Part shown: positions 11,470 to 33,789 of the stretch, in pieces
How positions within the stretch are numbered: position 1 is the stretch's first letter
Layout: the number at the start of each line of letters is the position of its first letter
Source: an uncultured virus (IMG/VR IMGVR_UViG_3300025139_000008)
Taxonomy: Duplodnaviria; Heunggongvirae; Uroviricota; Caudoviricetes
Length of the DNA: 64,000 nucleotides
Strand: one strand, 5' to 3'
IMG/VR virus record: IMGVR_UViG_3300025139_000008
The notes under the pieces: generated by a model
What the model was told of the DNA's origin: nothing
Seen by the model: the letters and a program-made list of their open reading frames with translations, nothing else
Databases searched by the model: none
Made by a program: the position numbers and the translations under genes

Positions 11470-11473
11470 GATC

Positions 11474-11499: not shown

Positions 11500-11620
11500 G
11501 CCGGTAACTAATCGTTAAGGTTAACGCATCGGTGTAAATTGTTAACCATCAAAGTGGAAAAAGTGCTTGACCGAATCACTTGAGACACCTAGAAACGAAT
11601 CACCACAACGGAGACGACCA

Positions 11621-11926: not shown

Positions 11927-11927
11927 C

Positions 11928-12257: not shown

Positions 12258-12414
12258 GAGAGGGGCTTCGGCCCCTTTCTTTTGTCCTTTACCTGCTGTT
12301 AAGGTTAACGCATAGGGGTAATTTGTTAACCATCAAAGTGGAAAAAGTGCTTGACCGAATCAGCGAATCGCCCTAGCAAGGAATCACCGCAATCAAGCGG
12401 CTGGAGACAAAACA

Positions 12415-12771: not shown

Positions 12772-13073
12772 TCGAGCGCGATCAATTCTTCGACATGTTG
12801 CAACGCGTCGCCAATGACGGCGTTTGCGGCCAGCCCCGGCCCTATTCGGGCCGGGCCATGTATGGCAAGCAGTGCATCGCAGTGTCCGGTGATTATCTGG
12901 ACGAATGGGCGCTTGCCGTCGCGCTGGGGCACCAGTGCCGTTGCTGGGGACTTGACGTTCGCGATCTGCCTTCGCCGGACAGCGATTCGCTTGGCCGAGG
13001 CCGCGTCCTCTATTGGCCGCAATACGAATGGCCGGACGACCAGCCCGAACCGGCGGACGAAGACGAAGACTAA
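12768..13073 (+). CDS. hypothetical cassette protein (YSGRAMYGKQC)
   Basis: ATGA coupling; terminator follows. Confidence 0.8.
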   Translation: MIERDQFFDMLQRVANDGVCGQPRPYSGRAMYGKQCIAVSGDYLDEWALAVALGHQCRCWGLDVRDLPSPDSDSLGRGRVLYWPQYEWPDDQPEPADEDED

Positions 13074-13219
13074 GGGAAGGCGGGGCAACCCGCCTTTTCT
13101 TTTGTTCTTTACCCGGCGTTAAGGTTAACGAAGAGTTACGATTAAGTGGAAAAAGTTCTTGACCGAATCAGTTACCTACCCTAGAACGAATCATCGCATT
13201 AAGCGATTGGAGACAGACC

Positions 13220-13492
13220 ATGCTTATGAACCCCTCTGTAAATATCAATGGCACCAGCCGCGAGGCTCTTGTCGATGCCCGCCGGGATGCCTTCGAAGCG
13301 ATCCACGCCGCCATGAATGCGCTTCGCGAAACCATGCCCCATGGCCGCGATTACGTGGGCCGGGCGCATCAATTCTCGGTGGACCGGGCGATCTACATGG
13401 AACGGCACGCCGTCCTGTCGAAGCTGTCCGAAGACCTGATGGACGAAGCGCTCGCGATCCAGAATGCCGGGGCACGGGGCGCTGTGGTATGA
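13220..13492 (+). CDS. hypothetical cassette protein
   Basis: GGAGACAGACC-ATG. Confidence 0.8.
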   Translation: MLMNPSVNINGTSREALVDARRDAFEAIHAAMNALRETMPHGRDYVGRAHQFSVDRAIYMERHAVLSKLSEDLMDEALAIQNAGARGAVV

Positions 13493-13729
13493 CCTACATT
13501 CATCACGAAACATTCAGCAGCCCGGAAGCCGATGAGAACGAAAACGAGCGGACGCCGAGAAACGCGCAATGGAATATGAGAGAGGGGCTTAGGCCCCTCT
13601 TTCTTTACCGGAAACCACACGTTAACCTTAACAGACCAGCCGAACTCGTTAACCATCTGTGTGGAAAAAGTGCTTGACCTAATACAGCGACTCGCCTAGA
13701 AACGAATCACTTGAAACGGAGACAAGACC

Positions 13730-14428
13730 ATGAAACTTTTCCCTGATGCCGCCGCCCTCGAATCATCCGGCTATCTTTTCCGGATCACTGACAACGGCGG
13801 CGAAACCTTTGACAGAATCACCGTCACGTTTTGCGATGGCGACGCGCTCGTTTGCACGCTCGGGACCATTTGCGCCCACGTTGAACGGGTTGACGTTCAA
13901 GTTGACGCAGAAGCCGTCGAATCCGGCGAGGCGCGGGACTTGCGCTGGATTGATCTGGACCCCGGCCTGCAATCGCGCATCCTTGCCGATCTGAATAACG
14001 GCTTTGCGGATTATATCGAAGCCGCGCCCGCAGCCGCGACTCGGGACGAAGCCCGCGACTGGGAAGGGCTATGGGATCACTACAGTGATAAACGTTCGCC
14101 GATTTATAAGTTGGGGGATTATTATCGCATCCGCGATGATGAGCGCGACAATGAAAACGACGATGACGATGACGCCTTTGAGACGCCAGCATTCGCTACG
14201 TTCCGGGACGCCTTATTCTACATGTTGCCAACCGACTATGACTTGAGCGGCCCGGAATATCACACCACGGTCGATCTCTGGGATACCGAAGGGGGACCGG
14301 CTGAACCTTGGGAAAAGGAACAGGATTGCGGTCAATGCGAAGGCACCGGCACAATCGAAGGCGGACCGGGCGGTGATGGGGAGGATGAGGAATGCCCCGT
14401 CTGCGATGGGAAGGGCAAGCAGGGATAA
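13730..14428 (+). CDS. acidic protein with C-terminal DnaJ-type CxxCxGxG zinc finger
   Basis: CGQCEGTG...CPVCDGKG; own promoter and terminator. Confidence 0.8.
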   Translation: MKLFPDAAALESSGYLFRITDNGGETFDRITVTFCDGDALVCTLGTICAHVERVDVQVDAEAVESGEARDLRWIDLDPGLQSRILADLNNGFADYIEAAPAAATRDEARDWEGLWDHYSDKRSPIYKLGDYYRIRDDERDNENDDDDDAFETPAFATFRDALFYMLPTDYDLSGPEYHTTVDLWDTEGGPAEPWEKEQDCGQCEGTGTIEGGPGGDGEDEECPVCDGKGKQG

Positions 14429-14587
14429 ACTAGGCGGGCTCCGGCCCGCCTCTTTTCCCGGTAACCCGGCGTTAACCTTAACAAATCGGACTAAGTTGTT
14501 AACCATCAAAGTGGAAAAACTACTTGACCGAATCACTTGTGCCGCCTAGAAACGAATCACCGCAATCAAGCGGTTGGAGACTTGACC

Positions 14588-15010
14588 ATGCCTAAGTGGC
14601 AATACAGTGGCGACCTTGATCTGCGAGAGGGCGGATTCTTCTGGCTGGACAACGGCGATGAAGACTGGGTGGCAGCCGTAAGCGTGACCCCTTGCAGCAG
14701 CGCAAGCGGGCCTGACAATCTGTTCTATATCGAGTCGGGCTCGATCTACTTTGCCCGCGATAAGTATGCTGACTATCTGTCAGTGATCGGCATGGAACCG
14801 GAAGACGCGACTCGCGAAGACGTGATCTACGCCGCGCACGCCTATGCTGGAATCGAGCGGGACCACGAAACGGTCGTCCGAATTGGTAAGGACGAAAGAG
14901 CGTCGGACCCTTGGCGGTGGAACGATTCGGGGTGGAACCCGGAACCCGATGTAGTGCTGCGCGGTAATGCGAGCCTGCAACGTTGGGTTGAACGCGAGTA
15001 TCTGTCATGA
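14588..15010 (+). CDS. hypothetical cassette protein
   Basis: GGAGA RBS after the promoter. Confidence 0.8.
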   Translation: MPKWQYSGDLDLREGGFFWLDNGDEDWVAAVSVTPCSSASGPDNLFYIESGSIYFARDKYADYLSVIGMEPEDATREDVIYAAHAYAGIERDHETVVRIGKDERASDPWRWNDSGWNPEPDVVLRGNASLQRWVEREYLS

Positions 15011-15255
15011 ACGCCGATGCAATCGAAGCGGAAGCCGCCGCAATCGCCCAAGCCGTTGCCGAGCGTAAGGCCCGGCCCTATCAGGCCGATGACAAGGCCC
15101 TAGTGGCGGCCTACCTTGCCGCCTCTGGTGTCGCGGGCTCACGCTCTTGGGAGATAACCCCGGAAGCGTTGGACTTGCCCTACCCTGTGTGGGCGGCCAT
15201 CCGGGCGGCCTACTTCGAAGCCGCGTGCAAGTGGAAGCGGGAGTCCGGCGCATAG
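15007..15255 (+). CDS. hypothetical cassette protein
   Basis: ATGA coupling. Confidence 0.7.
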   Translation: MNADAIEAEAAAIAQAVAERKARPYQADDKALVAAYLAASGVAGSRSWEITPEALDLPYPVWAAIRAAYFEAACKWKRESGA

Positions 15256-15377
15256 CCGGGCTCTTTCCCGGTAACCATCCGTTAACCTTAACAAGTCGTT
15301 ACCACTAAGTGGAAAAAGTGCTTGACCGAATCGCTTGCGTCACTTAGAAACGAATCAGTTGAAACGGAGACAGACCA

Positions 15378-15881
15378 ATGCCTGAATTTCAAATGGATAA
15401 AGAGGGAACCGTCAATGGGATGGTTTTCGCCGATCTCTCCATGATCTTTCAGGGTTACGTGGAAGCGATGCTTTTCACGGAAAACTCGCCCGGCAATAGC
15501 ATGGTCGATTGGCTGGATGATGAAGTGCAGGCAGGCTTGCGGGAAGGCACCATTGACGGCTGCATTCCGGAAGATGCGGGCTGGGGTGATATTCACCCCG
15601 AATCGGCTGAGCGGATGCAACTCGATTGCCTTAACTTCGAAGTGCAAGCCCGCGATCTACTGGCGCAAGCCTATGAGCGCGACTATGACGCGGCGCAAGC
15701 GGGCCGGGATTTCTGGTTCACTCGCAACGGTCACGGCGTCGGCTTTTGGGACCGCAAGGAACTGGAAGCGGACGGGCTGGGGGATGCTCTCACCACCATC
15801 GCCGAGTCGTTCGGGCAAGTGTATGTCGATTTCATCGCAGACCCTGAAAGCCCGACCGGTTACGGTTACGTCCACGTCTGA
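15378..15881 (+). CDS. acidic hypothetical protein (GRDFWFTRNGHGVGFWDR)
   Basis: Single-gene cassette with promoter, RBS and terminator. Confidence 0.85.
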   Translation: MPEFQMDKEGTVNGMVFADLSMIFQGYVEAMLFTENSPGNSMVDWLDDEVQAGLREGTIDGCIPEDAGWGDIHPESAERMQLDCLNFEVQARDLLAQAYERDYDAAQAGRDFWFTRNGHGVGFWDRKELEADGLGDALTTIAESFGQVYVDFIADPESPTGYGYVHV

Positions 15882-16035
15882 GAGGGGAGGGGCCTTGCGC
15901 CCCTCTCTTTTTGTCCGGTAACCTATCGTTAAGGTTAACGTGCCGGCCGATCTTCTTAACCATCAAAGTGGAAAAAGTGCTTGACCGAATCACTTGGGTC
16001 ACCTAGAAACGAATCAGTTGAAACGGAGACAGACC

Positions 16036-16275
16036 ATGCAAACAGCTATTGAACGCCTCAAGGAAGCCGCCAAGGACTCATTCATGAAGCCGCAATCCTA
16101 CATGGGTGCGGACATTCAGGAAGCGATTATGGAAGCCGGGCTCGATCTGGAAGACGACAAGATTTATGCACGCCTCTCGGCTCCGGGCTATCTCGATTGC
16201 ACTGATTGGAGCGGTCCCTTCGACACCACGGAAGAGGCCGCACAAGCCTTGCTGGACCTCTACTTCGAAGATTGA
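16036..16275 (+). CDS. acidic hypothetical protein (ARLSAPGYLDCTDW)
   Basis: Single-gene cassette. Confidence 0.8.
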   Translation: MQTAIERLKEAAKDSFMKPQSYMGADIQEAIMEAGLDLEDDKIYARLSAPGYLDCTDWSGPFDTTEEAAQALLDLYFED

Positions 16276-16434
16276 GAGTAGGGGCTTCGGCCCCTCTCTT
16301 TTTGCCCGGTAACCAGCCGTTAACCTTAACAGCGTGGTAACTAAGTGGAAAAACTTCTGGACGAATTGGCTTGCGAATCACCTACGACTCGCCTATCAAG
16401 AGTTCAGCGCAATTCCGCGCTTGGAGACGACCAA

Positions 16435-16884
16435 ATGTCATCACCTTTCCTACCTTCGGTGCAAGAGCAACTACAAGCTCGCCGCGACGAATCGGACGAC
16501 GGCTTCGCCTGCGTTCATATCGATACCTGTCTTTCATCCTTTCTGAATGACCACCACAATCGCGATGGCGAATTGCTGCTGGGCGCAATCGTCTTCGGCG
16601 ATACTTCCATCGGTGAAGTCAAGAACGAACTGCTGAGCGAGTTCGACTCGGTGGCTTACGATCTGGCTGGTGAGCGTGCTGGCTATGACCACGACAAGGC
16701 TCGGAAAGCGATCCTGCGTGCGTTTGTGGACGTTCATCCCATGGAACTGGACCGGAAAGCTTTCGATCCTTCGCTGGATTTCCGCGACGAAGAGGACGAC
16801 GGCTTCGGCTGCGAGGAATACTGTCAAGCGTGGTTCCTCATTACGTGGAACGTTCCGGAAGAGGAGGACGAGACATCGGATTGA
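16435..16884 (+). CDS. acidic hypothetical cassette protein
   Basis: GGAGA RBS; variant promoter. Confidence 0.8.
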   Translation: MSSPFLPSVQEQLQARRDESDDGFACVHIDTCLSSFLNDHHNRDGELLLGAIVFGDTSIGEVKNELLSEFDSVAYDLAGERAGYDHDKARKAILRAFVDVHPMELDRKAFDPSLDFRDEEDDGFGCEEYCQAWFLITWNVPEEEDETSD

Positions 16885-17075
16885 TCGACGCACTCGCCCG
16901 CCTAGGTGTGGGCGTCCTCTTCCTTATCCTTGCAACTGGGCTGGCCGCGTGCCAGCCCCTTTTCTTTTGGTAACCATTCGTTAAGGTTAACAACAAGTGG
17001 AGTTCGGTGGAAAAAGTTCTTGACCAAATCGCTTGCACCGCCTAGAAACGAATCAGTTGAAACGGAGACAGACCA

Positions 17076-17348
17076 ATGATCAAAGCAGCAGCAGATTTCA
17101 GCCACATCCGCCCGGACGAAGTAGCTGAGTGTTGGGATGGTGTTGACGCCGTTCCCGGCCTTTACAGCGCCCTTTGGGGTTGTGTGAACGATTACAAGGC
17201 CCCGTCGCCGGAAGTATCGGAAGAGCCCTGCCACGGTATGGATTCGGTCGCTGACTTCTGGGATCGGTTCTCGGATGATCACAAAGAGGCGCTTAACGCC
17301 CTCTGCGAACGGCACGCTGAGTTCTGGACCGGCCACGAGGAGTATTGA
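17076..17348 (+). CDS. acidic hypothetical cassette protein
   Basis: GGAGACAGACCA-ATG. Confidence 0.8.
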   Translation: MIKAAADFSHIRPDEVAECWDGVDAVPGLYSALWGCVNDYKAPSPEVSEEPCHGMDSVADFWDRFSDDHKEALNALCERHAEFWTGHEEY

Positions 17349-17350
17349 AC

Positions 17351-17596
17351 ATGAAGCTATTTTTCGTTGCTCACTTCAACGGCGAAAACTACGACTTGTT
17401 CGTGGTTGCCAACACGGTGGCGGAAGTGACTCAAGTCTGGCGAGACCATTACGAAATGCCGGACGAAACGCCCGAAATGATCTTCAAGGTAGCTGGCGCG
17501 AGCCCGGTCGGATCACGGGAAGAGCCCCATGCCTTCGAATGGCACGGGGTCAATCTCCCACGGGTTGGCGGCTCTCGACCGGCCAACCCGCGCTGA
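17351..17596 (+). CDS. hypothetical cassette protein
   Basis: GAGGAG RBS; terminator follows. Confidence 0.75.
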   Translation: MKLFFVAHFNGENYDLFVVANTVAEVTQVWRDHYEMPDETPEMIFKVAGASPVGSREEPHAFEWHGVNLPRVGGSRPANPR

Positions 17597-17752
17597 GGGG
17601 AGGGGCTTTGGCCCCTCTCTTTTTGTCTGTAAAAATTCGTTAAGGTTAACAGCCCGATAACCACTGGAAAAATAAATGGAGAAAGTGCTTGCGTGAATCG
17701 AATCACCGGCCTATTACCGAATCACCGGCACGGAGCCGGAAGGAGAAAGACC

Positions 17753-18199
17753 ATGCAAGACGCCTCACTTTTCAAGCGCCGCGAAACGACCTTCAACGGC
17801 GGCGAATCGACCACTGGGGTTTACATCCCCAAGCAGACCGTCACGATCGGGCGGTGTGTTGATGAAAACGAAGACATCTGGACCGTCACAGACGTGAACG
17901 GCAAGACCCACCGGGTTGATGGATGCGAGTTGCACCCGCACCCGGAATCCGCGCTGACCAATGTCGAGTTCATGAATCTGGTCATGACGTGGTGCAAGAC
18001 CCCGTTGATGCACGCCTTCATCTTTCAGGCGCTGGATCAATACGCCAAGGCTGTCGTCAAGGCAGACGTGGCGACGCTCGAAACCCCGTTCATCGCTGGG
18101 GCGGCGTGGCAGGAAACGGCCCGTGAATATATGGGCTTCGCTGTCGCCCGTGAATACGTGGAGAAAGAGCGCCACAAGGAATTGACTCCGGCCGATTGA
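17753..18199 (+). CDS. hypothetical cassette protein
   Basis: AGGAGA RBS; variant promoter. Confidence 0.8.
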   Translation: MQDASLFKRRETTFNGGESTTGVYIPKQTVTIGRCVDENEDIWTVTDVNGKTHRVDGCELHPHPESALTNVEFMNLVMTWCKTPLMHAFIFQALDQYAKAVVKADVATLETPFIAGAAWQETAREYMGFAVAREYVEKERHKELTPAD

Positions 18200-18369
18200 G
18201 CCTTCGGGCTCTCGGCAGAGGGGCAGGGTTTGGTCGCCCTGCCCCTCACCTTTTTCTGGTAGGGACCCGTTAACCTTAACAAATAGGGGTGGGTTGTTAA
18301 TCGTGGAAAAAGTGCTTGACCGAATCAGTGGATAATGGCACCAACGAATCACCACAAAGGAGACAGACC

Positions 18370-18726
18370 ATGCGAATCACTTACGAAATTGTGACCCCGG
18401 AAAGCGCCGAACAAGGCGACGCCGAAGAACGGGGATTCGTCCTTCCGGCTCGTTTCTTCCATATGAAGGTATCAATCGAACAGGTCGATGAACTGGATGA
18501 CTCAGACTTGGAGTGGAGCTTGCGGGACGCTGAACAATACCTAGGCCGTAATGGCATGGAGGATTCCGGTCGCTGGTTTTCCACAATTGACCCGGACCGC
18601 GATTATCAAACAGGTGCTGAAACCTATGAATCGCTGCACCCGTCGGACAACATCACACCGGCAAGCTACGAACGCCTTGCGCGTATCTTTTGCTGGGATC
18701 GCGACCCTCGACAGTTGCGAAGCTGA
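18370..18726 (+). CDS. acidic hypothetical protein (TYEIVTPESAEQGD)
   Basis: AGGAGA RBS after the promoter. Confidence 0.8.
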   Translation: MRITYEIVTPESAEQGDAEERGFVLPARFFHMKVSIEQVDELDDSDLEWSLRDAEQYLGRNGMEDSGRWFSTIDPDRDYQTGAETYESLHPSDNITPASYERLARIFCWDRDPRQLRS

Positions 18727-18839
18727 TGGGCTGCCTTGACGCCGTGGCCCGGCTGCTGCTGGGTGTGTTCTTACTGATCATCGCCGCCGGGGTTGCATCA
18801 TGCACCCCGGCATTTTTCTTTCTGGTAACGGTTCGTTAA
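18726..18839 (+). CDS. possible lipoprotein signal-peptide ORF, likely truncated
   Basis: MGCLDAVARLLLGVFLLIIAAGVAS-C lipobox; TGATG coupling; terminator hairpin lies inside the ORF. Confidence 0.4.
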   Translation: MGCLDAVARLLLGVFLLIIAAGVASCTPAFFFLVTVR

Positions 18840-18947
18840 CCTTAACAGAAGTGTTTCACTTGTTAACCAACTTTGAAGTGGAAAAAGTGCTTGACCGAAA
18901 CAGCGAATCACCCTAGACCGGGATCACCAACAACGGAGACAAACCAA

Positions 18948-19346
18948 ATGAGCGAACACGCAATCAGCAATGCACGGGGCTGGCTCTCGACAATCGTCGG
19001 GGCGATGGCCGCGCTGGAAGCCCTGAACGACGGAGCCGAATCGGCTGAGTTCGACGGGGAGACCTTCACCGACCCGGACGACGTGCAGAACCGGATTCAG
19101 GAAATGCCGCTTTCCGTGGAAGTGCGCGACGGATGGCGGGCACCGGGCGGCGAATCGGAGCCGGAAGAGTTCGCGATTCTGCTCTCGACCGGCGGACCGG
19201 CCTTGCGGGTATATGGTGACATCGGCGGCGAACCTTTCTTGCAGTGGCAGGACTGGGGCACGCCGTGGACCACCTACCATGACACCACCGAACAGGAAGA
19301 CGAGGCCCTGCAAGCCTTTGTCGGAATGTTCTATCTCGGCGAATAA
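18948..19346 (+). CDS. acidic hypothetical protein (LLSTGGPA...QDWGTPW)
   Basis: Single-gene cassette. Confidence 0.85.
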   Translation: MSEHAISNARGWLSTIVGAMAALEALNDGAESAEFDGETFTDPDDVQNRIQEMPLSVEVRDGWRAPGGESEPEEFAILLSTGGPALRVYGDIGGEPFLQWQDWGTPWTTYHDTTEQEDEALQAFVGMFYLGE

Positions 19347-19515
19347 GGAAAGGCGGGGCAACCCGCCTTTTTCTTTGGGTGTAAACATTCGTTAAGGTTA
19401 ACGGAATCGGTCTATCGTGTTAACCATTCTTCAAAGTGGAAAAAGTGCTTGACCGAATCGCTGGAAAATGCGAATCAGGGTTTACCGGAAGAGACCGGAA
19501 AACAGGAGACAGACC

Positions 19516-19821
19516 ATGAAGACACTTTTTGAAATCCCGACCCGTGGCGATGACATGACCATGCCGGGCGGCATCGCGCTGCGCTACAACGAAAACCGCG
19601 AAGAGTTTGTGGTCCACAACTACAACACCGACCGGGAGACAGGCACCGAACGCAATTACTTTGGTGGCGGCTACTACTGCTCGGGCACACCGGCGGAACG
19701 TCTGAGCGGGGCCATGGCAGACCTCAGCAAGCGGGTTGCACGTCAGAGCAATTACGATCTGGGCGGCTCCATTGATGTGGAAGCTTTGACCGGACTCCCT
19801 GCCCGGCTCTACGCCATCTAA
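19516..19821 (+). CDS. hypothetical cassette protein
   Basis: AGGAGACAGACC-ATG. Confidence 0.8.
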   Translation: MKTLFEIPTRGDDMTMPGGIALRYNENREEFVVHNYNTDRETGTERNYFGGGYYCSGTPAERLSGAMADLSKRVARQSNYDLGGSIDVEALTGLPARLYAI

Positions 19822-20038
19822 TACCGGGACCCGGCACCCTGAGAACAGGGGCCGGGTTTCCAAACACCGGCGGGACCCGGCCCACTGAGAACAAGGGCCG
19901 GGTTTCCAAATTGGTAACCAATCGTTAAGGTTAACAAATTGATGAAATGAGTTAACTATTAAAGTGGAAAAAGTGCTTGACCGAATCGCTGGGAACGGGC
20001 AAACGAATCAGGCGCACTCAAGCGCAGGAGACAGACCA

Positions 20039-20326
20039 ATGCCCAAACTTTACAATGCGGACATTAGCATCACCGCGACCGCCTATGTGATCGCTGAGAA
20101 CGAAGACGACGCACGGGAAAAGATTAGCGCCCTTCAAGGGGACTACATCGAATTTTCCGACCGCCGCCAGCAAGTGGCAGACGACCTGTTCGTGACCGGC
20201 GAAACCTATGGCCCTGATATGCCGAAACTGTCGCTGAGCCCTGCTATGACCATCAACCACAGCGCGACTCGCCCCTATGTCTGTCTGGTGCAGGAACTGA
20301 CCGGCGAAGAAGAGGATGTAGGATGA
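20039..20326 (+). CDS. hypothetical cassette protein
   Basis: AGGAGA RBS. Confidence 0.8.
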   Translation: MPKLYNADISITATAYVIAENEDDAREKISALQGDYIEFSDRRQQVADDLFVTGETYGPDMPKLSLSPAMTINHSATRPYVCLVQELTGEEEDVG

Positions 20327-20598
20327 TGCACGAAGCCAATCAATCCCGGATCGACTGGGCAAAGAACGCCCTCGATACCTTCACCATCGAAACCTATGGC
20401 GGACGGCCTTACTCGACGCTTGAAGCGCAATGCGCCGACTGCGAAGAAGGTGAGGGTGACGACTACACGGCCATCCAAGACCTTATCGGTGATTTGCTCC
20501 ATGTGGCCCACGAAAGAGGCTGGAACACAGCCGAACTAATCCGGCGGGCGGAAGCCAACTTCGTCTATGAAGCTGCACCGGACTATCAAGGCGACTAA
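20323..20598 (+). CDS. acidic hypothetical cassette protein
   Basis: Coupled ORF; terminator follows. Confidence 0.8.
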   Translation: MMHEANQSRIDWAKNALDTFTIETYGGRPYSTLEAQCADCEEGEGDDYTAIQDLIGDLLHVAHERGWNTAELIRRAEANFVYEAAPDYQGD

Positions 20599-20932
20599 GG
20601 GAGAGGGGCTTCGGCCCCTCTTTGCTTTTTGGTCGTTTTGGATCACCGCCGCTTTGGATCGACGCGACTTTGGATCGCCCCGGTTTTGGGTTTGGATCAT
20701 TTCGATTTTCATGATCGCCGCCATTTTGCAGGAGCCCGGACCGACCGACCGAACCAGCCGACCGAGCCCCACGCTCCCCACCAGCAGATGGTTAACGAAA
20801 CTGACCAATCTGTTAAGGTTAACGCCGGCGGCCGAATCCGTTAAGGAATATGGTTAACAGATTGGCTGATTTTGTTAACCATCAAAGTGGAAATAGTGCT
20901 TGACCGAATCAGCGAATCGGTCCATACCCGAA

Positions 20933-21046
20933 TGGTAAATGGCTGGACAGCCAGATCAAGGAACTGGATTGCGATTGGGGCGACCCTGTTTCACCTGAAT
21001 GCGAATCGCATCTCTATTGAGGGAGCGGGCTTCGGCCCGCCTCTTG
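20933..21046 (+). ncRNA. candidate small RNA (cassette with promoter and terminator but no RBS-led ORF)
   Basis: Promoter at 20900, hairpins including GGG-GCGA-CCC, terminator GCGGGC-TTCG-GCCCGC. Confidence 0.4.
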
Positions 21047-21187
21047 GCTGGTAACGGTTTGTTAAGGTTAACGGTCGGCCGGGATTTGTTAACCATCAAA
21101 GTGAAAAGTAAGTGGAAAAACTGCTTGACCGAATCGGCTTAGACTGGCACTAACGAATCACCGCAATCAAGCGGACGGAGAAAGACT

Positions 21188-21274
21188 ATGAGCCGACACC
21201 AGAAACGCCGCCTTGCCGCCAAGCGTGCGCGCATCGCCATTCTTTCCTCGTGGATCGCAAAGGGCCGCCGCTAA
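21188..21274 (+). CDS. 28 aa basic peptide MSRHQKRRLAAKRARIAILSSWIAKGRR
   Basis: GGAGA RBS after the promoter; TAATG coupling to the next gene. Confidence 0.65.
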   Translation: MSRHQKRRLAAKRARIAILSSWIAKGRR

Positions 21275-21540
21275 TGGCTGGCTTCTGGGATCGCGTGGAC
21301 ACCCTCGAAATGGTGGAACTCTACGCCGAGGACAACGGCCAGATTGCCAGCGAAGAGGAGCTTTCCAAGCGCTTTGACGAAGAAGTGCTTCCCGATGTGA
21401 TCGCACACTACGGCGAAAACGATTCGGTTGCTATCAATGAAGAATTTAGCAACTGGTCGGACATGCTGTGTAAGGACGGCGAAATTCACCCGGAACAATA
21501 CAATTCGTATTGCTACGTTGGAAAGCTGGCAGACGACTAA
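21274..21540 (+). CDS. highly acidic small protein
   Basis: Coupled start MAGFWD. Confidence 0.8.
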   Translation: MAGFWDRVDTLEMVELYAEDNGQIASEEELSKRFDEEVLPDVIAHYGENDSVAINEEFSNWSDMLCKDGEIHPEQYNSYCYVGKLADD

Positions 21541-21651
21541 GGCGAGGGGCTTAGGTCCCTCACCAAACTTTTTTTTTGTAATTAGTGGAAAAAGTGCTTG
21601 ACCGAATCGGTTGGTTCGCCTAGAAACGAATCAACAGCAACGGAGGCAGTC

Positions 21652-21756
21652 ATGCAGATCAACACCTACCACGTTTACATCAACAACACCTTTTCCGGGA
21701 TCATCTCGGCGGTGTCTTACCGGCAAGCGCGCCAGCGCGCTAAGGCCAAGGTTTGA
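21652..21756 (+). CDS. 34 aa peptide resembling the N-terminus of 26214..26486
   Basis: GGAGG RBS; sole ORF between promoter and terminator. Confidence 0.65.
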   Translation: MQINTYHVYINNTFSGIISAVSYRQARQRAKAKV

Positions 21757-21918
21757 GGGGAGGGGCTTCGGCCCCTCTTTCTTTTTGCCCGGTGAAATTT
21801 GTTAACCTTAACGAATATGGTTAACAAATTGACGTTTGGGGTTAACTATCAAAGTGGAAAAAGTGCTTGACCGAATCGGTGACTCGTGCGAAAACGAATC
21901 ATCAATCGGAGACAGATC

Positions 21919-22050
21919 ATGCAAAACATCCGCAAGAATCCCATTGCCGCCTCGCTCGCCAGCGCTCACCTCGCCCCTCGCAAGGTTCGCGCTCGTAAAG
22001 GCAAGGGCTCTTTCCGCCGCAACCCCAAGCATCGGGGAGTGGCGGCATGA
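21919..22050 (+). CDS. ArfA-like (alternative ribosome rescue factor-like) peptide, 43 aa
   Basis: MQNIRKNPIAASLASAHLAPRKVRARKGKGSFRRNPKHRGVAA carries the N-x-I..L.....R.....KGKGS-aromatic-x-R..KH signature; GGAGA RBS; below the ORF-track cutoff. Confidence 0.7.
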   Translation: MQNIRKNPIAASLASAHLAPRKVRARKGKGSFRRNPKHRGVAA

Positions 22051-22229
22051 GCCGCGCTCGCAACACCCTCGACTCCCGCTATAGCGTGCGCCTCGAATGG
22101 TGCGGACGTGCGACGCAGCAATGGGTTGCCCGCTTCTGTGGTGATTGGCTCGGATGCGACTCGACCCGCTCGGGCGCTGAGGAAATCGCCCGTCTGTATG
22201 AGCGCGACCGCTGGAGCATGGCAGCATGA
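22047..22229 (+). CDS. hypothetical protein (EWCG...WVARFCGDW)
   Basis: ATGA coupling. Confidence 0.75.
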   Translation: MSRARNTLDSRYSVRLEWCGRATQQWVARFCGDWLGCDSTRSGAEEIARLYERDRWSMAA

Positions 22230-22570
22230 GCGACCGCATCCGCCCCGTGACTTTCGACTCGGCCCAGATCGAGCCCTTTGCTGCTCGCATCATCGGCATA
22301 GCCGCTTCGCAATTCTGTCGCCTCAAAGAGCGCGAGAAAGAGACCGGAGAGAAGTCGGACCCCTTCGACATGGAAGATGCTCTTATGCATCTCTGGTGGG
22401 CTCTCAAGGGGCTTGATCACATTGCAATAGCGTTACGCGGCGGCAGGGACTGCGACGACGTGTCAGGCGTTCATTTTTCCATGGTGATGAATGCGGAACA
22501 CAGCAGGATTCGCCGCCTCATCATGGAAGAACTTGGAGTCGATCCCGGATCGCATCCGCGCTGGAAATGA
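22226..22570 (+). CDS. hypothetical cassette protein
   Basis: ATGA coupling; terminator follows. Confidence 0.75.
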   Translation: MSDRIRPVTFDSAQIEPFAARIIGIAASQFCRLKEREKETGEKSDPFDMEDALMHLWWALKGLDHIAIALRGGRDCDDVSGVHFSMVMNAEHSRIRRLIMEELGVDPGSHPRWK

Positions 22571-22777
22571 GGGGCTTCGGCCCCTCTCTTTTTGCCCGGT
22601 AACCCCACGTTAAGGTTAACCGATCGGGCGAAGTTGTTAACCATCAAAGTGAAATTGAAGTGGAAAAAGTTCTTGCACGAATCAGCGAATCGCCCTAGAC
22701 CCGAATCACCGGGCGGCACCTACTGACTGGCAGAGCAGCAGCAAGGCTCGCCCGGTAACTCACACAGGAGACAGGCT

Positions 22778-22939
22778 ATGTTCGAAGTCAAGACCACCCT
22801 GCGGACCTACAAGGTCGAAGCCAATCACATCAACGCCGCTTTCATCGCCGCAAACGTGCTGGCAGTGGAAGGCGAAGAAATCCTTTCCGTGGCCTATGCT
22901 GGGCCCGTCACGTTCATCATCGTGGAGATCGCGGCATGA
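22778..22939 (+). CDS. 53 aa hypothetical protein
   Basis: AGGAGA RBS; coupled to the next gene. Confidence 0.7.
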   Translation: MFEVKTTLRTYKVEANHINAAFIAANVLAVEGEEILSVAYAGPVTFIIVEIAA

Positions 22940-23154
22940 TCAGCAAGAAAGATGCCATCGCCAAGGCAATCGCGGCTGGAGCCTCGGAGGAGGAAATTGA
23001 TCGCCAAGCCGCAAACTACGTCCGCCAAGTCGGCACCGTGCCTTTCAACAACATGATTCGGGCTCTCAACATCGGCCCTTGGCACAACACCGTTGACGAC
23101 TGGACTCGGCTGGCAGCAGCCCTGACCGCGAGGGGATTGGCGCGAAAGCGCTAA
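22936..23154 (+). CDS. hypothetical cassette protein
   Basis: ATGA coupling. Confidence 0.75.
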   Translation: MISKKDAIAKAIAAGASEEEIDRQAANYVRQVGTVPFNNMIRALNIGPWHNTVDDWTRLAAALTARGLARKR

Positions 23155-23274
23155 TTCCTTAACGGAATTGATGAATTTGTTAAGGTTAACGCGAATTAAG
23201 AATAAAGTGGAAAAAGTGCTTGACCGAATCAGTTAACCATCCTAGAAACGAATCAACAGCAACGGAGACACACA

Positions 23275-23487
23275 ATGAAGATCAAGATCAAGACCACCGC
23301 TCGCTACACCGCAAAGCGCAAAGCCGCCATCATCGCCGATGTGGACAACGGCACCACCACCCTCGAAGACGTTTGCAGCCTGCACAACATCACAAGCGAA
23401 GAGTTTGCTGGCTGGCGTAAGTCGCTGGATCGCTCGGGACAGCAGGGGCTTCGGATCACTCGCCTGCAACACTACCGGGCAGCATAA
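23275..23487 (+). CDS. sciP: SciP / DUF1153 family small CtrA-inhibitory protein homologue
   Basis: RYTAKRKAAII..V..G..TLEDVC..HNITSEEF..W...LDRSG..GLR.TRLQHYR matches the SciP pattern RW...RKA.VV..V..G....EEAC..Y.LS.EEF..W....DRHG..GLR.TR.Q.YR. Confidence 0.85.
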   Translation: MKIKIKTTARYTAKRKAAIIADVDNGTTTLEDVCSLHNITSEEFAGWRKSLDRSGQQGLRITRLQHYRAA

Positions 23488-23637
23488 GGGGAGGGGCTTC
23501 GGCCCCTTTTCTTTTGGCCTTAACCCAGTGTTAAGGTTAACAGATCAGCCGAATTAGTTAACCAATTAGCTGGAAAAAGTGCTTGACCGAATCAGCGAAT
23601 CACCTTAGACCCGAATCACAAACAACGGAGACAGACC

Positions 23638-23880
23638 ATGCGTTTTCTTTCTGCAACCCTTATGGCCCTCGGCCTTTTAGCTGGTTATGGTGCTTTCTAC
23701 ATGACAGCGAACATTGACCTAACCCCGCTCGCCCCTGAGGCCCGGACCGTCACCCAGATGCTCTTTAACGCCCTTGCTATGTGCGGGCTTTGCCTGCCCG
23801 CCTTGTCGATGCTAGCGCTGCACGACGACGCAAACTTGCGCCGCCAGTATCCCCACCGCTATCGCAAGAATCGCCGCTAA
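23638..23880 (+). CDS. small two-TM membrane protein
   Basis: Two hydrophobic segments and a basic C-terminal tail. Confidence 0.75.
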   Translation: MRFLSATLMALGLLAGYGAFYMTANIDLTPLAPEARTVTQMLFNALAMCGLCLPALSMLALHDDANLRRQYPHRYRKNRR

Positions 23881-24044
23881 TGGAAACGCTGGCAGAATAT
23901 CGCCACAAGCGCGACCGGGCAATCGTTCAACGCCGCATGGGCGAAGAGCGCCGCCGCCACGTCAATCAATGCGTGGCTGACATCATCGCACAAGGTAAGA
24001 TGGAAGAGCGCCGCCAGACCATCCGCCGGGAGGAAGATCAATGA
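23880..24044 (+). CDS. hypothetical protein (METLAEYR...)
   Basis: TAATG coupling. Confidence 0.65.
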   Translation: METLAEYRHKRDRAIVQRRMGEERRRHVNQCVADIIAQGKMEERRQTIRREEDQ

Positions 24045-24241
24045 CAGACCGCCGATTCGTTATCGTGGAAAACGCCGGATATGAAGGCGAAAAAGACATC
24101 ACCCACTTTCTCACCTTGCGGGAGGCATTCGCCTATCAGCGCGGCCATTATGAGCCGGACGAGATCGAAGAATTGCACGTCGATATTCGCCAAGACTGGA
24201 CGGACGAAAACGGCGATTTTCATCAGGAATATGTCTATTAG
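24041..24241 (+). CDS. acidic hypothetical protein
   Basis: GGAGG RBS; coupled. Confidence 0.75.
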   Translation: MTDRRFVIVENAGYEGEKDITHFLTLREAFAYQRGHYEPDEIEELHVDIRQDWTDENGDFHQEYVY

Positions 24242-24308
24242 GTGGAAAAAGTGCTTGACCGAATCGATGGACTATGCGAAAACGAATCATCGAAACGGAG
24301 ACAAGCAA

Positions 24309-24503
24309 ATGACCACCATCCTGATCCTCGCAATCGCCTTCCTGATCACCGCCACCGTGGCAATCATCAAGGCCCGCGCCGAACTCGCCGCTCACGCCGC
24401 CGAACAGGCAAGCAAGCATATCCCCAACCCAACCGAATACACCGGCCCGCGCTTCACCGCACATGGCCGGGAAATCCAACAGACCGGACGCCGGATCATC
24501 TGA
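24309..24503 (+). CDS. single-TM small protein
   Basis: GGAGA RBS; hydrophobic N-terminus. Confidence 0.75.
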   Translation: MTTILILAIAFLITATVAIIKARAELAAHAAEQASKHIPNPTEYTGPRFTAHGREIQQTGRRII

Positions 24504-24659
24504 GAAAGGGGCGGGAGAAATCCCGCCCTTTTCTTTGTCTGGTAACCGGGTGTTAAGGTTAACAAAACGGTTAAATTCGTTAACCATCAAAGTGGAAAAA
24601 ATGCTTGACCGAATCGGCTGGTATGTTTAGACCCGAATCACTGGAAACGGAGACAGACC

Positions 24660-24857
24660 ATGAGCAATTCCACCGAACAAGCAATGGCCGCCGACCTCGA
24701 CCTTTGCGACATGATCCTTGCATTCGGAACGCCTGCCGCCAAGCGCAAGGCCCGCGCCCACCGCAAGGCTTGTTTCGCAGAAATCGCCCGGATGAACGCC
24801 GAGTCTGGGACTGACAAGCTGAGCGATGATGAATTACTCGCCGAATTGATGGCCTGA
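24660..24857 (+). CDS. hypothetical cassette protein
   Basis: GGAGACAGACC-ATG. Confidence 0.8.
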   Translation: MSNSTEQAMAADLDLCDMILAFGTPAAKRKARAHRKACFAEIARMNAESGTDKLSDDELLAELMA

Positions 24858-25045
24858 CAGGAACCGGCCCCTGACAACAGGGGCCGGGACCCTAATTCAC
24901 TGAGAAAAGGGGCCGGGCTCCAAAATCGTAAATTCAGGTTAACCTTAACCGATCGGCCGAAATCGTTAACCATCAAAGTGGAAAAAGTGCTTGACCGAAT
25001 CGGCTGGCGCGTTTAGACCCGAATCACTGGAAACGGAGCCAGACC

Positions 25046-25321
25046 ATGGAAAGATTCGAACTGACAGGCTCGGGCATCAGCGACGGGCAGAATCCGGAAA
25101 AACTGCTTGCCGCCGCGAAAAAGTGCGGCCTTCACAATCCCCGACTCGCCTATCACTTCGGCTGGTCGAATCAGCCGAAAACGATTCGTTTCAGCGCTGA
25201 AAGCTGGGAAGCTGCCGATAAGGTCGCCGATCTGGTGCGAACCGAATTTTACCCGGAAAATGCCGAGGGCCGTTTGTGCCCGATGATTCGGGCCTATCCG
25301 GTGAAAGCCCCGGAAGCCTGA
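25046..25321 (+). CDS. hypothetical cassette protein
   Basis: GGAG RBS; terminator follows. Confidence 0.8.
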   Translation: MERFELTGSGISDGQNPEKLLAAAKKCGLHNPRLAYHFGWSNQPKTIRFSAESWEAADKVADLVRTEFYPENAEGRLCPMIRAYPVKAPEA

Positions 25322-25494
25322 TCCCGGAAAAGCCCGATTCGCCGAATCGGGCTTTTTCTTTGGCGGTAATCTCTGGTTAACCTTAATAAAACGGCGAAAT
25401 TCGTTAACCCTAAAAATCGGGATTTTCTGGAAAAAGTGCTTGACCGAATCGGCCTTTTCTGGAAAAACCGAATCACCGCAAACGGAGAAATGAC

Positions 25495-25650
25495 ATGATC
25501 ACCATGGAAGCGATTATCGGGGGCCTTATTTCGGGGTTCGCTGTGCGCCTCTATGGTGCAGGACTGGCGCTCTATGTGGGCCTGTGTGCGAGCGACCTTA
25601 TCAGCAGCACCCTTGCCAGCGCCACGGCTACCCTAGACACCCTACCCTAA
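25495..25650 (+). CDS. 51 aa hydrophobic peptide
   Basis: GGAGA RBS after promoter 25440; MITMEAIIGGLISGFAVRLYGAGLALYVGLC. Confidence 0.55.
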   Translation: MITMEAIIGGLISGFAVRLYGAGLALYVGLCASDLISSTLASATATLDTLP

Positions 25651-25719
25651 CCTACTCTGTCCTGCCCGGCCTAGGCTGTGTGCGCGGCTCTCGGCTGCTA
25701 TGGATCAAGGTCATTTTAG

Positions 25720-25830
25720 GTATGCGTGCGTGTGCGCGTGCGTGCGTGTGCGCCTGTGCGTGCGCCTGTGCGGGCGCGTGCGCCTGCGGGTGTGCGCGCC
25801 TGCGTGTGTGTGTGCATGTGTGCGCGTGCC
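25720..25830. repeat. alternating purine-pyrimidine (GT/GC)n tract
   Basis: gtatgcgtgcgtgtgcgcgtgcgtgcgtgtgcg... for about 110 bp with few interruptions. Confidence 0.9.
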
Positions 25831-25848
25831 TGCCTAGGCGCGCACGAG

Positions 25849-26207
25849 GTGGAAAAACAAACTCACAAACTAATTCATTTTGTTATTGATTTGGTAACGA
25901 ATCCCTGCGATAAAGGGACATCGAAAGCGAACGGAGACAAGACCATGTTCAAGATCATTGACACCGCAAACAACAGCGAATGCCTTGGTAGCTATGAAAC
26001 CCGCGCTGGGGCAGACTACGGGCTCGGCATGGTAGCTTGTGGACGTGGTAACGACTCGGGCTTGCGTATCGTCAACCAAATGACTCATTGCGTAGAAGTG
26101 CCCGCCACGTTCTAAGTAGTGGAAAAACAAACTAACAAAATAATTCATTTTGTTATTGATTTGGTAACGAATCCCTGCGATAAAGGGACATCGAAAGCGA
26201 ACGGAGA
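25849..26207 (+). repeat. two near-identical ~89-bp promoter/RBS units (second cassette promoter type)
   Basis: GTGGAAAAACAAACT.ACAAA.TAATTCATTTTGTTATTGATTTGGTAACGAATCCCTGCGATAAAGGGACATCGAAAGCGAACGGAGA at 25849 and 26119. Confidence 0.9.
25945..26115 (+). CDS. hypothetical cassette protein
   Basis: GGAGA RBS; MFKIIDT start. Confidence 0.7.
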   Translation: MFKIIDTANNSECLGSYETRAGADYGLGMVACGRGNDSGLRIVNQMTHCVEVPATF

Positions 26208-29712: not shown

Positions 29713-31479
29713 TTGGCTGATAAAATCACAAAGCGGCAAGCCCGCACCTTCGCTCAGCGACAGGCGCTCTATGCTACGCGTCAGTCGAAGCAGCAGATGA
29801 TGGAGAATGTCCCGCTCTTCGCGAACTGGGACTATGCCAACTGGCGCTTGATCTGGCTGGCGATCCGTCACGCCATGATCGGTGAAGTAGAGATCAAGAA
29901 GCACGGCACCGAATATCTACCCCAGCCGGAAGGCATGGACGAGAGCCAGTATTCGGCCTACCTCGATCGCGCTGTTTTCTACAACATGGTTTACCGCACC
30001 GTCACCGGCCTTACCGGTGCGATCTATCGGCGTGACCCGCGCCTGATGAAGGCTGGTCCCAAGGTCCGTGAGCTTTCGAAGCGCATCTCCAAGGACGGTC
30101 TGTCCCTCAAGCTGTTCGCCAAGGTCATCACTCAGGAAATGCTTTCGACCGGACGCTACGGCGTTCTGGTTGACAAGACTGATGACGCCAACAGCGTGAC
30201 CGCCAAGCCTTACCTCGCCGGCTACACCTGCGAGAACATCTTGGACTGGACGACGACCGAGATCGAAGGACGCGACGAGTTCGACTACATTCTCCTGCGA
30301 GAGTTCAGCGTCGATCGCCGCTTCTTCGAAATGGTTGCCGATCAAGTGGTGCCGAATGCCACCTACGGGCAGTTGTTCACTGTCTACCGCGTCCTGCGTC
30401 TGGTCTACAACGACATGGATAATCGCTGGGAATACCGGCAGGAACTCTACGCCCGTGGTTCGGCCGATGCCGATCTTTCGGAAGAGCCGATCATCACGAC
30501 CCCGATGGTATTCGGCGTCCCAATGAAGCGCATCCCGTTCCGCTTCTTCAATGCCACGACCAATCTCGGCGACATCGAAAAACCGCCGATCCTCGACATC
30601 CTCACCCTCAACCTCTCGCACTACAAGAGCTACGCTCAGCTTGAGCATGGCCGCTTCTACACTGCCAACCCGGTCTACTATGTGTCGGGCGGACAGGAAG
30701 ACGACGAATACCACATCGGCCCCTCGGTCGTCTGGGAAATCGGAAACGGCGAGAAGGCTGGTATCATCGAGTTCAACGGCTCTGGTATGAAGAGCCTTGA
30801 GAATGCCTTGCAGCAGAAGGAGACGCAAGTCGCTTCGCTGGGTGGGCGTTTGCTGGGAGACTCATCGACCGCCGGCCAGTCGGACAATCAGGTCAAGCTC
30901 AAGGATCGCAACGAAGCATCCTTGCTCCTCAACGTCACCACGGTCCTCAACGAGAACTTCACTGAGCTTCTGATCATCCTCGGTAACTGGATGAACGAGC
31001 GCTCAGAAGGTCTGGAGTTCCGCGTCAACCAAGACTTCCTGCTCGATCAGGCCGCCGCCCGTGAGTTCCGCGCCATCACGATGATGTATCAGGCCGGGCT
31101 CATCGGCATCGAGATCATCTATGAATACTTCCTCAAGGCGGATGTTATCCCGGAGTATGTGACTCTGGAAACCTTCACCAAGATGCTGGAAGATCAGGCC
31201 CAGTTCCCGAACAACCCGGACTTCGCCAGCCGCAAGGAAGGGTTCCCGGATGCCCGGACCCAGCGCGCCGACGAACTGGCTCGCGATCTCGACGACAACG
31301 AAACCGGCCGCCTCGACAGCGAACTGGAATCGGACGAAGCGATTGCCGAACAGGCCCGCAAGTCCGCCGAGAAGGTTGCCAAGGAACAGCCGAAGATCGC
31401 TCCTGTCCCAGCGACCGCAAAGCAAGCAATGCAAAAAGACGCCCCGGCACCAGCGCCAAAGCCGGCACCAAAGGCGTAA
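29713..31479 (+). CDS. portal protein (DUF4055-like)
   Basis: YLP...Y..YL.RAVFYN...RTV.GL.G and PP.LD...LNL.HY pattern; position before scaffold and capsid; start uncertain (TTG 29713 or ATG 29797). Confidence 0.88.
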   Translation: MADKITKRQARTFAQRQALYATRQSKQQMMENVPLFANWDYANWRLIWLAIRHAMIGEVEIKKHGTEYLPQPEGMDESQYSAYLDRAVFYNMVYRTVTGLTGAIYRRDPRLMKAGPKVRELSKRISKDGLSLKLFAKVITQEMLSTGRYGVLVDKTDDANSVTAKPYLAGYTCENILDWTTTEIEGRDEFDYILLREFSVDRRFFEMVADQVVPNATYGQLFTVYRVLRLVYNDMDNRWEYRQELYARGSADADLSEEPIITTPMVFGVPMKRIPFRFFNATTNLGDIEKPPILDILTLNLSHYKSYAQLEHGRFYTANPVYYVSGGQEDDEYHIGPSVVWEIGNGEKAGIIEFNGSGMKSLENALQQKETQVASLGGRLLGDSSTAGQSDNQVKLKDRNEASLLLNVTTVLNENFTELLIILGNWMNERSEGLEFRVNQDFLLDQAAAREFRAITMMYQAGLIGIEIIYEYFLKADVIPEYVTLETFTKMLEDQAQFPNNPDFASRKEGFPDARTQRADELARDLDDNETGRLDSELESDEAIAEQARKSAEKVAKEQPKIAPVPATAKQAMQKDAPAPAPKPAPKA

Positions 31480-32862: not shown

Positions 32863-33789
32863 ATGCTCACTCTGCACGAGGCATCCAAGCTCGTCGATGG
32901 TGATCTCAAGCGTCAGGCGATCATCGAGATGTTCGCTGGCTCGACCGATCTCATGGCCGCTCTGCCCCTCATGGATATTCCGGGTAACTCGTATAGCTAC
33001 GCTCAGGAAGCGAAGCTGCCGAGCGTCGGGTTCCGTGGTTACAACCAAGGCTATGACGCGTCGATCGGCGTGATCAACCCGCAGTCCGAAACCCTCCGCA
33101 TCGCCGGTGGTGAACTGGATGTCGATACCGCGCTCGTCAAGACGCACGGCATCGGTGTTCGCACCCGTCAGGAAGCGATGCAGGTCAAGGCAATGGGTGC
33201 CAAGATCACCGCAGCCTTCATCAACGGCGACTCCAGCGATGGCGTTTCGTTCGATGGTCTGCGTGCCCGCGTCAATGGTTACCAGCTTCTGGCAGCCGAC
33301 GAAGACAGCCCGGCCGCAAACGGCCCGCTGAGCCTCGCAACGCTCGACGAAGCGATCGACCGTGTGGACAATCCGACCCACATCATCATGTCCAAGCGTA
33401 TGCGCAACCTGCTCTCGCAGGCCGCAAAGGACAAGGATGTCGGCGGTGACCTCCAGTGGTCGAAGGACGACTTCGGCCGTCGCGTTGGCTTCTACAACGA
33501 CCTGCCGATCCTCATCACTGAGGACGACGACAAGGGCGAGAAGATCATCGACTTCAACGAAGCCGGCCCGGCCGGTGGTGCAGTCAGCCAGTCCGTCTAT
33601 GTCGTGAGCATGGGCGACGGCAAGATCGTCGGCCTCCAGAACGGCATCATGGATGTCCGCGATCTGGGCGAGATCGACGCAATGCCGGTTTACCGCACCC
33701 GCGTCGAGTGGCTGATTGCCATGGCCGTCATGCACGGCAAGGCAGTGGCCCGCATCTGGGGCATCACCAACGCGGCGATCGTTCGCTAA
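32863..33789 (+). CDS. major capsid protein
   Basis: 308 aa; FINGD...FDGL, LDEAID and YRTRVEW pattern of HK97-fold MCPs; strong RBS. Confidence 0.9.
   Translation: MLTLHEASKLVDGDLKRQAIIEMFAGSTDLMAALPLMDIPGNSYSYAQEAKLPSVGFRGYNQGYDASIGVINPQSETLRIAGGELDVDTALVKTHGIGVRTRQEAMQVKAMGAKITAAFINGDSSDGVSFDGLRARVNGYQLLAADEDSPAANGPLSLATLDEAIDRVDNPTHIIMSKRMRNLLSQAAKDKDVGGDLQWSKDDFGRRVGFYNDLPILITEDDDKGEKIIDFNEAGPAGGAVSQSVYVVSMGDGKIVGLQNGIMDVRDLGEIDAMPVYRTRVEWLIAMAVMHGKAVARIWGITNAAIVR

Follow-up and report, generated by a model that had tools for sequence, protein, structure and literature searches.

The ORF at 23275-23487 of the window, by which we mean the whole stretch of 64,000 nucleotides analysed here (IMG/VR record IMGVR_UViG_3300025139_000008), is a true phage gene and encodes a minimal SciP-like protein, consisting of the three-helix DUF1153 core without the tail of about 25-30 residues. 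In Caulobacter, SciP switches off the master regulator CtrA; judged from its sequence, the phage may tamper with the CtrA of its host by means of this protein. The phage origin of the window, claimed in an earlier note made from the letters of the DNA, is confirmed by PHROGs matches to a large terminase (6869-8602), a portal (29713-31479), a scaffold, a major head protein (32863-33789), a tape measure (40187-44959), large tail proteins up to 63628 and PhoH.

The 70-aa product matched Pfam DUF1153 (PF06627) at E 6.5e-20 with 71.5 bits against a cut-off of 23.5, and the DUF1153 assignment of the earlier note thus holds in a profile search. The best NCBIfam model was "CtrA inhibitor SciP" (NF051866, E 7.5e-19). 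The score of 67.7 bits is, however, below the curated equivalog cut-off of 100, whereas a chromosomal SciP from Sphingopyxis reached 141.4 bits and covered the whole model. Of the 87 profile positions, 25-87 are matched, by residues 6-68. The claim that the ORF matches the SciP pattern end to end is therefore true for the ORF but not for the profile, the first 24 positions of which are absent; the N-terminal extension is indeed missing in comparison with host-type SciP, which covers positions 2-87. Because the DUF1153 match is strong, yet the NF051866 cut-off is missed and part of the profile is absent, membership is to be called true but diverged: the protein is a short member of the DUF1153 domain family and belongs to the SciP family in this sense, but is not a SciP orthologue by the NCBI criterion. 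A longer N-terminus is not readable because the ATG is the first start codon after the in-frame stop, and a longer ORF with a hidden N-terminus was ruled out, an upstream in-frame start being absent. The Pfam model HTH_Tnp_1 was passed as well (29 bits, cut-off 24.1) but overlaps the far stronger DUF1153 match. In PHROGs there was no family for the protein except a weak match to the transposase family phrog_151 (E 4.6e-4).

To define conserved positions, 12 phage-type sequences were compared with 157 cellular ones. Both sets have 18 positions in common (T8, R10, K16, A17, G26, C34, E43, W47, R53, G55, G58, L59, R60, T62, R63, Q65, Y67 and R68), which include the C-terminal GLRxTRxQxYR. Where the cellular proteins have an L-P-P-P motif directly before the core, the phage protein begins with a basic K-I-K-I-K, and none of the 12 phage-type sequences has retained the N-terminal tail and its LPPP motif. 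Every phage-type sequence also shows two aromatic switches: Y11 stands in place of a W present in 93% of the cellular rows, and H37 in place of a Y present in 98%. In SciP, R35 and R40 are needed for CtrA binding. Their spacing would presumably fit R10 and R15 of the phage protein, a correspondence that we do not count as evidence; a literature search on SciP R35A / R40A found nothing relevant. T24 of SciP, by the numbering that we assume, would fall in the tail missing from the phage protein. A loss-of-function allele, sciP(T24I), is reported in a passage of PMC4083442, and if its residue lies in the missing tail, the tail may matter for function.

An AlphaFold2 model of the 70-aa protein (27-row alignment, mean pLDDT 76.6) has helices at residues 13-24, 30-37 and 41-58, and its residues 10-11 and 62-63 form a small strand pair. 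For a host-type SciP with 100 aa, modelled from an 8-row alignment (mean pLDDT 64.4), the equivalent helices are at 36-47, 53-60 and 64-77, and residues 1-23 have a pLDDT below 50. The helices match and the host tail is of low pLDDT; therefore the phage protein is predicted to keep the folded core and to be without a tail of predicted disorder. When the model was compared with the PDB by Foldseek, no match at E <=0.001 was obtained; the best was 2JRT (probability 0.97, E 0.18), and all others were at E above 3. By sequence, 2JRT (Rhodobacter sphaeroides RHOS4_12090) and 2OA4 (SiR5), both from structural genomics, are relatives of the protein over residues 7-68 (2jrt_A, E 6.3e-9; 2oa4_A, E 4.4e-7), but with 95-101 aa they have about 29 extra N-terminal residues. 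A co-fold with the DNA-binding domain of Sphingopyxis CtrA (residues 118-235), done without control complexes, gave a score of 0.00, which weighs neither for nor against a contact.

Identical or near-identical genes are present on seven IMG/VR contigs and two metagenome contigs. The nearest related IMG/VR fragment is 96.8 kb long, and related contigs reach 132-176 kb. Close relatives of 68-70 aa, 8 in number, came from a word-indexed search of proteins. An exhaustive HMMER search gave 1694 proteins at E <=0.001 and 71 at <=1e-10; short forms of 64-68 aa ranked at the top, and cellular proteins of about 90-150 aa came after them. The SciP-like proteins of this short type form a small clade, mostly of 64-70 aa. 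Among 50,697 phage records, queried with the 70-aa protein and with a host SciP, a homologue was found only in Erythrobacter phage XM05 (152 kb). XM05, the only related isolate, is a virulent siphovirus with Erythrobacter sp. JL475 as its host, according to PMC12014285 as far as that text was available. Estimates from the sequences show purifying selection on the gene: dN/dS is 0.057 against relative L007, 0.040 against L008 and 0.33 against L009, with an overall range of 0.04-0.39.

A quick maximum-likelihood tree was calculated from 171 rows with at least 50 domain residues each; it is poorly resolved because it has only 65 columns. The short forms are one group of 13 (SH-aLRT 92, stem 0.29). 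Two further short DUF1153 proteins behave differently in it: P0146 (75 aa) joins the phage-type proteins by a long branch, and P0073 (64 aa) is placed outside this group. By path length, the cellular rows closest to the group are SciP proteins of Sphingomonadales, at about 1.15 changes per site, with a support of 43 for the joining branch. The tree thus fits an old capture from a sphingomonad host, without proving it, and a phage of sphingomonad-type bacteria is suggested. A DUF1153 gene was found in 145 of the 151 genomes of a Sphingomonadaceae sample (about 111-143 bits, profile positions 2-87). In a sample of 31 genomes from the family of Sphingopyxis, 30 gave a CtrA gene (NF045991), with a score over the cut-off in 27. 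In some Sphingomonadaceae genomes (e.g. G021, G034, G007, G013) a few hundred bases at most separate the DUF1153/SciP and CtrA genes; in one Sphingopyxis genome (G002) they are far apart.

The features of the cassette are collected in Table 1. As the earlier note had proposed, the gene is a stand-alone cassette: a repeat promoter, a Shine-Dalgarno sequence and a hairpin terminator surround a single gene. With a promoter and a terminator of its own, and with an upstream hairpin that separates it from the previous cassette and is conserved in relatives, the SciP-like gene is therefore regarded as a single-gene unit. The TTGACC-17 nt-TAGAAA arrangement resembles what we take to be the housekeeping (sigma-70-type) promoter consensus of Alphaproteobacteria. 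A generic scan of 22700-24000, the model of which is E. coli-type, called neither promoter nor terminator; the promoter call thus rests on the repeat family and this consensus, and the terminator call on fold energies. None of 200 shuffles folded as well as the terminator hairpin, and five similar hairpins form one family. The leader AACGGAGAC, which contains the Shine-Dalgarno region, recurs in most cassettes. The ORF is flanked by orphan ORFs of 72 and 80 aa, both without a Pfam match. The former stays beside the SciP-like cassette in the relatives L007, L008, L009 and L107; the downstream gene varies between relatives.

Table 1. Position of the SciP-like gene, its putative expression signals and the adjoining elements in the window
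Feature	Position	Strand	Remark
Orphan ORF, 72 aa	22936-23154	+	directly upstream of the SciP-like cassette
Strong hairpin without U-tract	23131..23160	+	end of the upstream 72-aa ORF; -25.7 kcal/mol, z -5.86
Promoter repeat GGAAAAAGTGCTTGACCGAATC, 22 nt	23209..23230	+	one of 26 copies (<=4 mismatches)
Putative -35, TTGACC	23220-23225	+	supplied by the promoter repeat
CtrA half-site-like 8-mer TTAACCAT	23233..23240	+	within the -35/-10 spacer of the promoter of the SciP-like gene
-10-like TAGAAA	23243-23248	+	17-nt spacer after TTGACC
Shine-Dalgarno GGAG	23264..23267	+	7 nt before the ATG; read from the sequence
CDS, 70 aa, ATG start	23275..23487	+	diverged member of the DUF1153/SciP family with a short N-terminus
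Intrinsic-terminator-like hairpin (GC stem, UUCG loop, U-rich 3' side)	about 23486..23517	+	-24.9 kcal/mol, z -3.26
Perfect TTAA-N7-TTAA box TTAACCCAGTGTTAA	23520..23534		upstream module of the next cassette (promoter repeat 23572-23593)

The cassette belongs to an array in the genome of a large siphovirus. With up to 4 mismatches allowed, the promoter repeat occurs 26 times from 10059 to 25450, without exception on the + strand, and each of these near-identical repeats heads a cassette of one to three small orphan ORFs. Most cassettes have an upstream module in common, consisting of a terminator, [G/T]TAA-N7-TTAA, GTTAAC, about 16 nt and GTTAACCAT, as well as a leader of the form GAATCA...AACGGAGACAGACC before the ATG. 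When 35 other small ORFs of the array were scanned against Pfam, a family was found for only one. This ORF, at 21886/21919-22050 (+), is ArfA-like (30.3 bits, cut-off 25.5) and possibly encodes a phage-borne ribosome-rescue factor (alternative ribosome-rescue factor A). An array of about 35 small orphan genes looks like an early host-takeover block, and its cassettes would presumably be expressed early.

The array, in which the earlier note had placed CtrA boxes, is rich in CtrA-type motifs. In the 64-kb window, four perfect TTAA-N7-TTAA boxes were observed where 0.25 are expected, and boxes with at most one mismatch have a density of 1.78 per kb in the array and 0.13 per kb outside. TTAACCAT was observed 23 times where 0.88 are expected, 22 times within 8663-24973. 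A [G/T]TAA-N7-TTAA box is found within 115 nt upstream of 17 of the 26 promoters, 2 of these boxes being perfect and 15 having GTAA; in 8 of the 17 promoters it starts exactly 52 nt before the repeat. TTAACCAT is found upstream of 13 of the 26, where it mostly starts 14 nt before the repeat. By analogy, these motifs are putative CtrA sites: they resemble the consensus quoted in PMC4083442, and according to the available parts of PMC9437464 CtrA binds and regulates promoters of several alphaproteobacterial phages, and TTAACCAT-containing repeats are present in a Sphingomonas phage. TGTCGCG, proposed by Tan et al. as the DNA motif of SciP (as quoted in PMC4083442), is not enriched in the window, with 10 sites against 14.2 expected and none in the intergenic modules.

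The earlier note had reported a perfect CtrA box following the gene. The box at 23520-23534 is real. It lies 52 nt before the repeat at 23572, a spacing also seen for the GTAA-N7-TTAA boxes in seven other cassettes. From its position, it is the standard module of the next cassette, with T instead of G, and not a special appendage of the SciP-like gene. The box is perfect in L007, L008 and L009 (in the last with a changed N7); in L107, which is more distant, it has the form GTAA-N7-TTAA.

The promoter of the SciP-like gene itself has neither the usual box at -52 nor TTAACCAT at -14. Instead, it is the only one of the 26 array promoters with TTAACCAT inside the promoter core, in the spacer between -35 and -10. 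The promoter repeat upstream of the gene is conserved in L007, L008, L009 and L107, and the in-core TTAACCAT is at the same place in the window and in all four, though the proteins diverge to 72% identity. A regulator bound between -35 and -10 would be expected to hinder RNA polymerase. Since this promoter alone has the putative site in its core, the control of the SciP-like gene by CtrA, which the position of TTAACCAT suggests, would probably differ from that of the other 25 promoters, most simply by occlusion.

Some further observations concern the surroundings of the array. Just upstream of the first repeat (10059) is the densest CtrA-type cluster of the window, with three perfect TTAA-N7-TTAA boxes and two copies of TTAACCAT in about 110 nt (9860-9966). 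Beyond the other end there is a direct repeat of 89 nt (25849-25937 and 26119-26207, 98% identical) with a small ORF after each copy and a different leader, GTGGAAAAACAAACT...; it is preceded by a GT/GC-rich low-complexity stretch (25700-25840). No RNA sequencing run with the stretch was found; 19 aquifer DNA runs contain it and may be its source. Four wastewater runs are labelled RNA but are probably DNA. Their contigs mainly cover repeated promoter units of relatives and carry no expression information. In comparison with 21500-25500, different promoter repeats are joined in these contigs, e.g. with skips of 584, 1037 and 1645 nt. This suggests gain and loss of cassettes by recombination at the repeats, weakly, as the sides of the joints are short and the likeness is low.

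By ChIP, SciP is found at the S-phase class of CtrA-activated promoters, namely those of flagellar, pilus and chemotaxis genes. It binds CtrA directly and blocks the recruitment of RNA polymerase (passages in PMC4083442 and PMC6847485), but its mode of action is disputed between contact with CtrA and direct DNA binding, as set out in a part of PMC4083442. The Caulobacter promoter PsciP is CtrA-activated and SciP has a short half-life due to the Lon protease (PMC6847485, in the part available); the texts consulted define no degron. In the mechanism that we propose, the phage gene would be transcribed alone by host RNA polymerase from the repeated sigma-70-type phage promoter. The minimal SciP would then dock on host CtrA at CtrA-occupied promoters, as Caulobacter SciP does, and prevent the activation of transcription by CtrA. 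As a result, the CtrA regulon of the host, in sphingomonads motility and related surface functions, would be damped, and there would be a feedback on those array promoters of the phage that have upstream CtrA-type boxes.

We put forward tentatively, as a reading whose chances fall somewhat short of even, that the 70-aa protein docks on host CtrA and damps CtrA-activated motility and surface genes of the host, and probably the phage array as well. We favour docking because the core and surface-type residues are conserved, the gene is constrained and the block in which it lies is dense with CtrA-type sites. A feedback loop with the CtrA-type boxes of the array, already envisaged in the earlier note, can reasonably be inferred, and it is sharpened by the conserved TTAACCAT in the gene's own promoter. 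An arrest of the cell cycle, also envisaged there, seems less likely. Outside Caulobacterales and Hyphomicrobiales, CtrA is known for functions in motility, in chemotaxis as well as in quorum sensing and not in cell-cycle control, according to the part of PMC9437464 that we draw on, so that in a sphingomonad host an effect on motility or the cell surface would be the likelier outcome.

The lost tail, the missed equivalog cut-off and the two aromatic switches, which together with the missing LPPP motif argue against docking, are the reason for keeping three other readings in view; a further point against docking is the XM05 homologue, which is not stand-alone and whose promoter is without the core half-site. 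One possibility is that the protein is a sequence-specific HTH regulator that binds phage or host promoters independently of CtrA, for example at the GTTAAC-rich modules, and in this way sets the timing of the early array. The DUF1153 fold is of HTH type, the protein also passes the HTH_Tnp_1 model, and its net charge is +6. Its weak Foldseek neighbours are DNA-binding HTH domains (DeoR, ArdK, CENP-B), yet apart from 2jrt these matches are all in the range of E above 3. Direct DNA binding by SciP is one of the published views (PMC4083442, as far as seen), and a phage factor instead of CtrA could bind the TTAAC motifs of the array. On the other hand, TTAACCAT and TTAA-N7-TTAA match the CtrA consensus quoted in the available passages of PMC9437464 and PMC4083442 and no SciP motif, and the proposed SciP motif shows the lack of enrichment described above. 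We consider such a regulator unlikely, though worth keeping in mind.

Even less probable, in our estimate, is that the tail-less core acts as a decoy, i. e. that it holds the SciP site on CtrA without blocking RNA polymerase and thereby shields CtrA-activated phage promoters from the SciP of the host. This would account for the conservation of core positions along with the loss of the LPPP tail in all 12 phage-type sequences, and the array boxes are in upstream, activator-like positions, so that the phage may want CtrA active. However, an inhibitory role of the tail is unsupported, the host-type model predicts it to be disordered, and the role of T24 rests on a single passage of PMC4083442 and on an assumed numbering. 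A remnant of an IS transposase helper (HTH_Tnp_1 / IS3-IS66 OrfA type), or a gene without a present function, is disfavoured as very improbable. The HTH_Tnp_1 and phrog_151 matches and weak NCBIfam matches to IS3 and IS66 TnpA would fit it, and one source names the relatives "transposase-like protein". Yet the DUF1153 match is far higher, the NCBIfam IS3 model gives 17 bits against 160, and an adjoining transposase ORF is absent. The dN/dS of 0.04-0.06 against L007 and L008 indicates constraint, and the place and promoter of the gene are kept in five diverged relatives. The helper remnant was rejected on the dominance of DUF1153, the lack of an adjacent transposase and the dN/dS constraint.

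The protein on which the docking reading is modelled is SciP of Caulobacter crescentus with its alphaproteobacterial orthologues (NF051866). The phage protein has the same domain family, the three-helix core and the 18 conserved positions, and its gene is likewise set among CtrA-type motifs. It differs in length (70 aa against about 90-100 aa), in the absence of tail and LPPP, in its score below the equivalog cut-off and in the Y11/H37 switches, and it is encoded by a virulent-type phage and not by a chromosome. Closer is gp97 of XM05 (XYM60381.1, annotated as hypothetical), 64 aa as translated, with an identity of 56% in the alignment and of 58% in the segment matched by tblastn. XM05 is of the same phage type and has the promoter repeat and a TTAACCAT-rich array (38 copies of TTAACCAT against 3 for a reversed control). 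In contrast to the stand-alone gene of the window, gp97 is the second gene of a two-gene cassette, and the core of its promoter is without TTAACCAT. A mention of CtrA or SciP was not found in the part of the XM05 paper available to us (PMC12014285).

CtrA sites in phage genomes and phage copies of GcrA and CcrM-like proteins are already known, as can be taken from the accessible text of PMC9437464. The CtrA-site clusters and the "lytic deferment" described there likewise involve CtrA-type sites concentrated in promoter regions of one genome block. In that work, as far as available, the action is that of host CtrA on the DNA of phages, and SciP enters solely as a model of its binding motif, whereas here the phage also carries a relative of a CtrA inhibitor. 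The GcrA homologue of phiCbK-like Caulobacter phages and the CcrM-like methyltransferases of Sinorhizobium phages, cited in the same text, are also phage copies of host regulators from the CtrA network; the SciP-like protein, however, is from a different family and concerns a different node of the network. In our literature search, a phage-encoded SciP or a phage DUF1153 was described in no title or abstract found, and as most subscription journals were outside its scope this is not proof of absence.

The family can be assigned with confidence, and the setting is unusual and testable; the function is what we infer. In the fullest and, as we see it, rather doubtful form of the docking reading, a virulent phage lineage would have captured a host CtrA inhibitor, pared it down and made it part of an early array read by CtrA. 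Some two dozen early promoters would be driven by host CtrA on their upstream boxes, and the minimal SciP, expressed from the one promoter with a CtrA half-site in its core, would then turn promoter-bound CtrA off; a self-timed shut-off of early genes would result, along with a shut-down of host motility and of the synthesis of surface appendages. The phage would then have built a feedback circuit from the master regulator of its host and a viral copy of the antagonist of this regulator. XM05 and Erythrobacter sp. JL475 are a culturable system in which this can be tested. With a natural minimal SciP it could also be settled through which part SciP makes contact with CtrA, and what the N-terminal tail is for. 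A phage factor that acts on CtrA itself is a kind of player that has been missing so far, and a viral relative of the CtrA inhibitor would be one.
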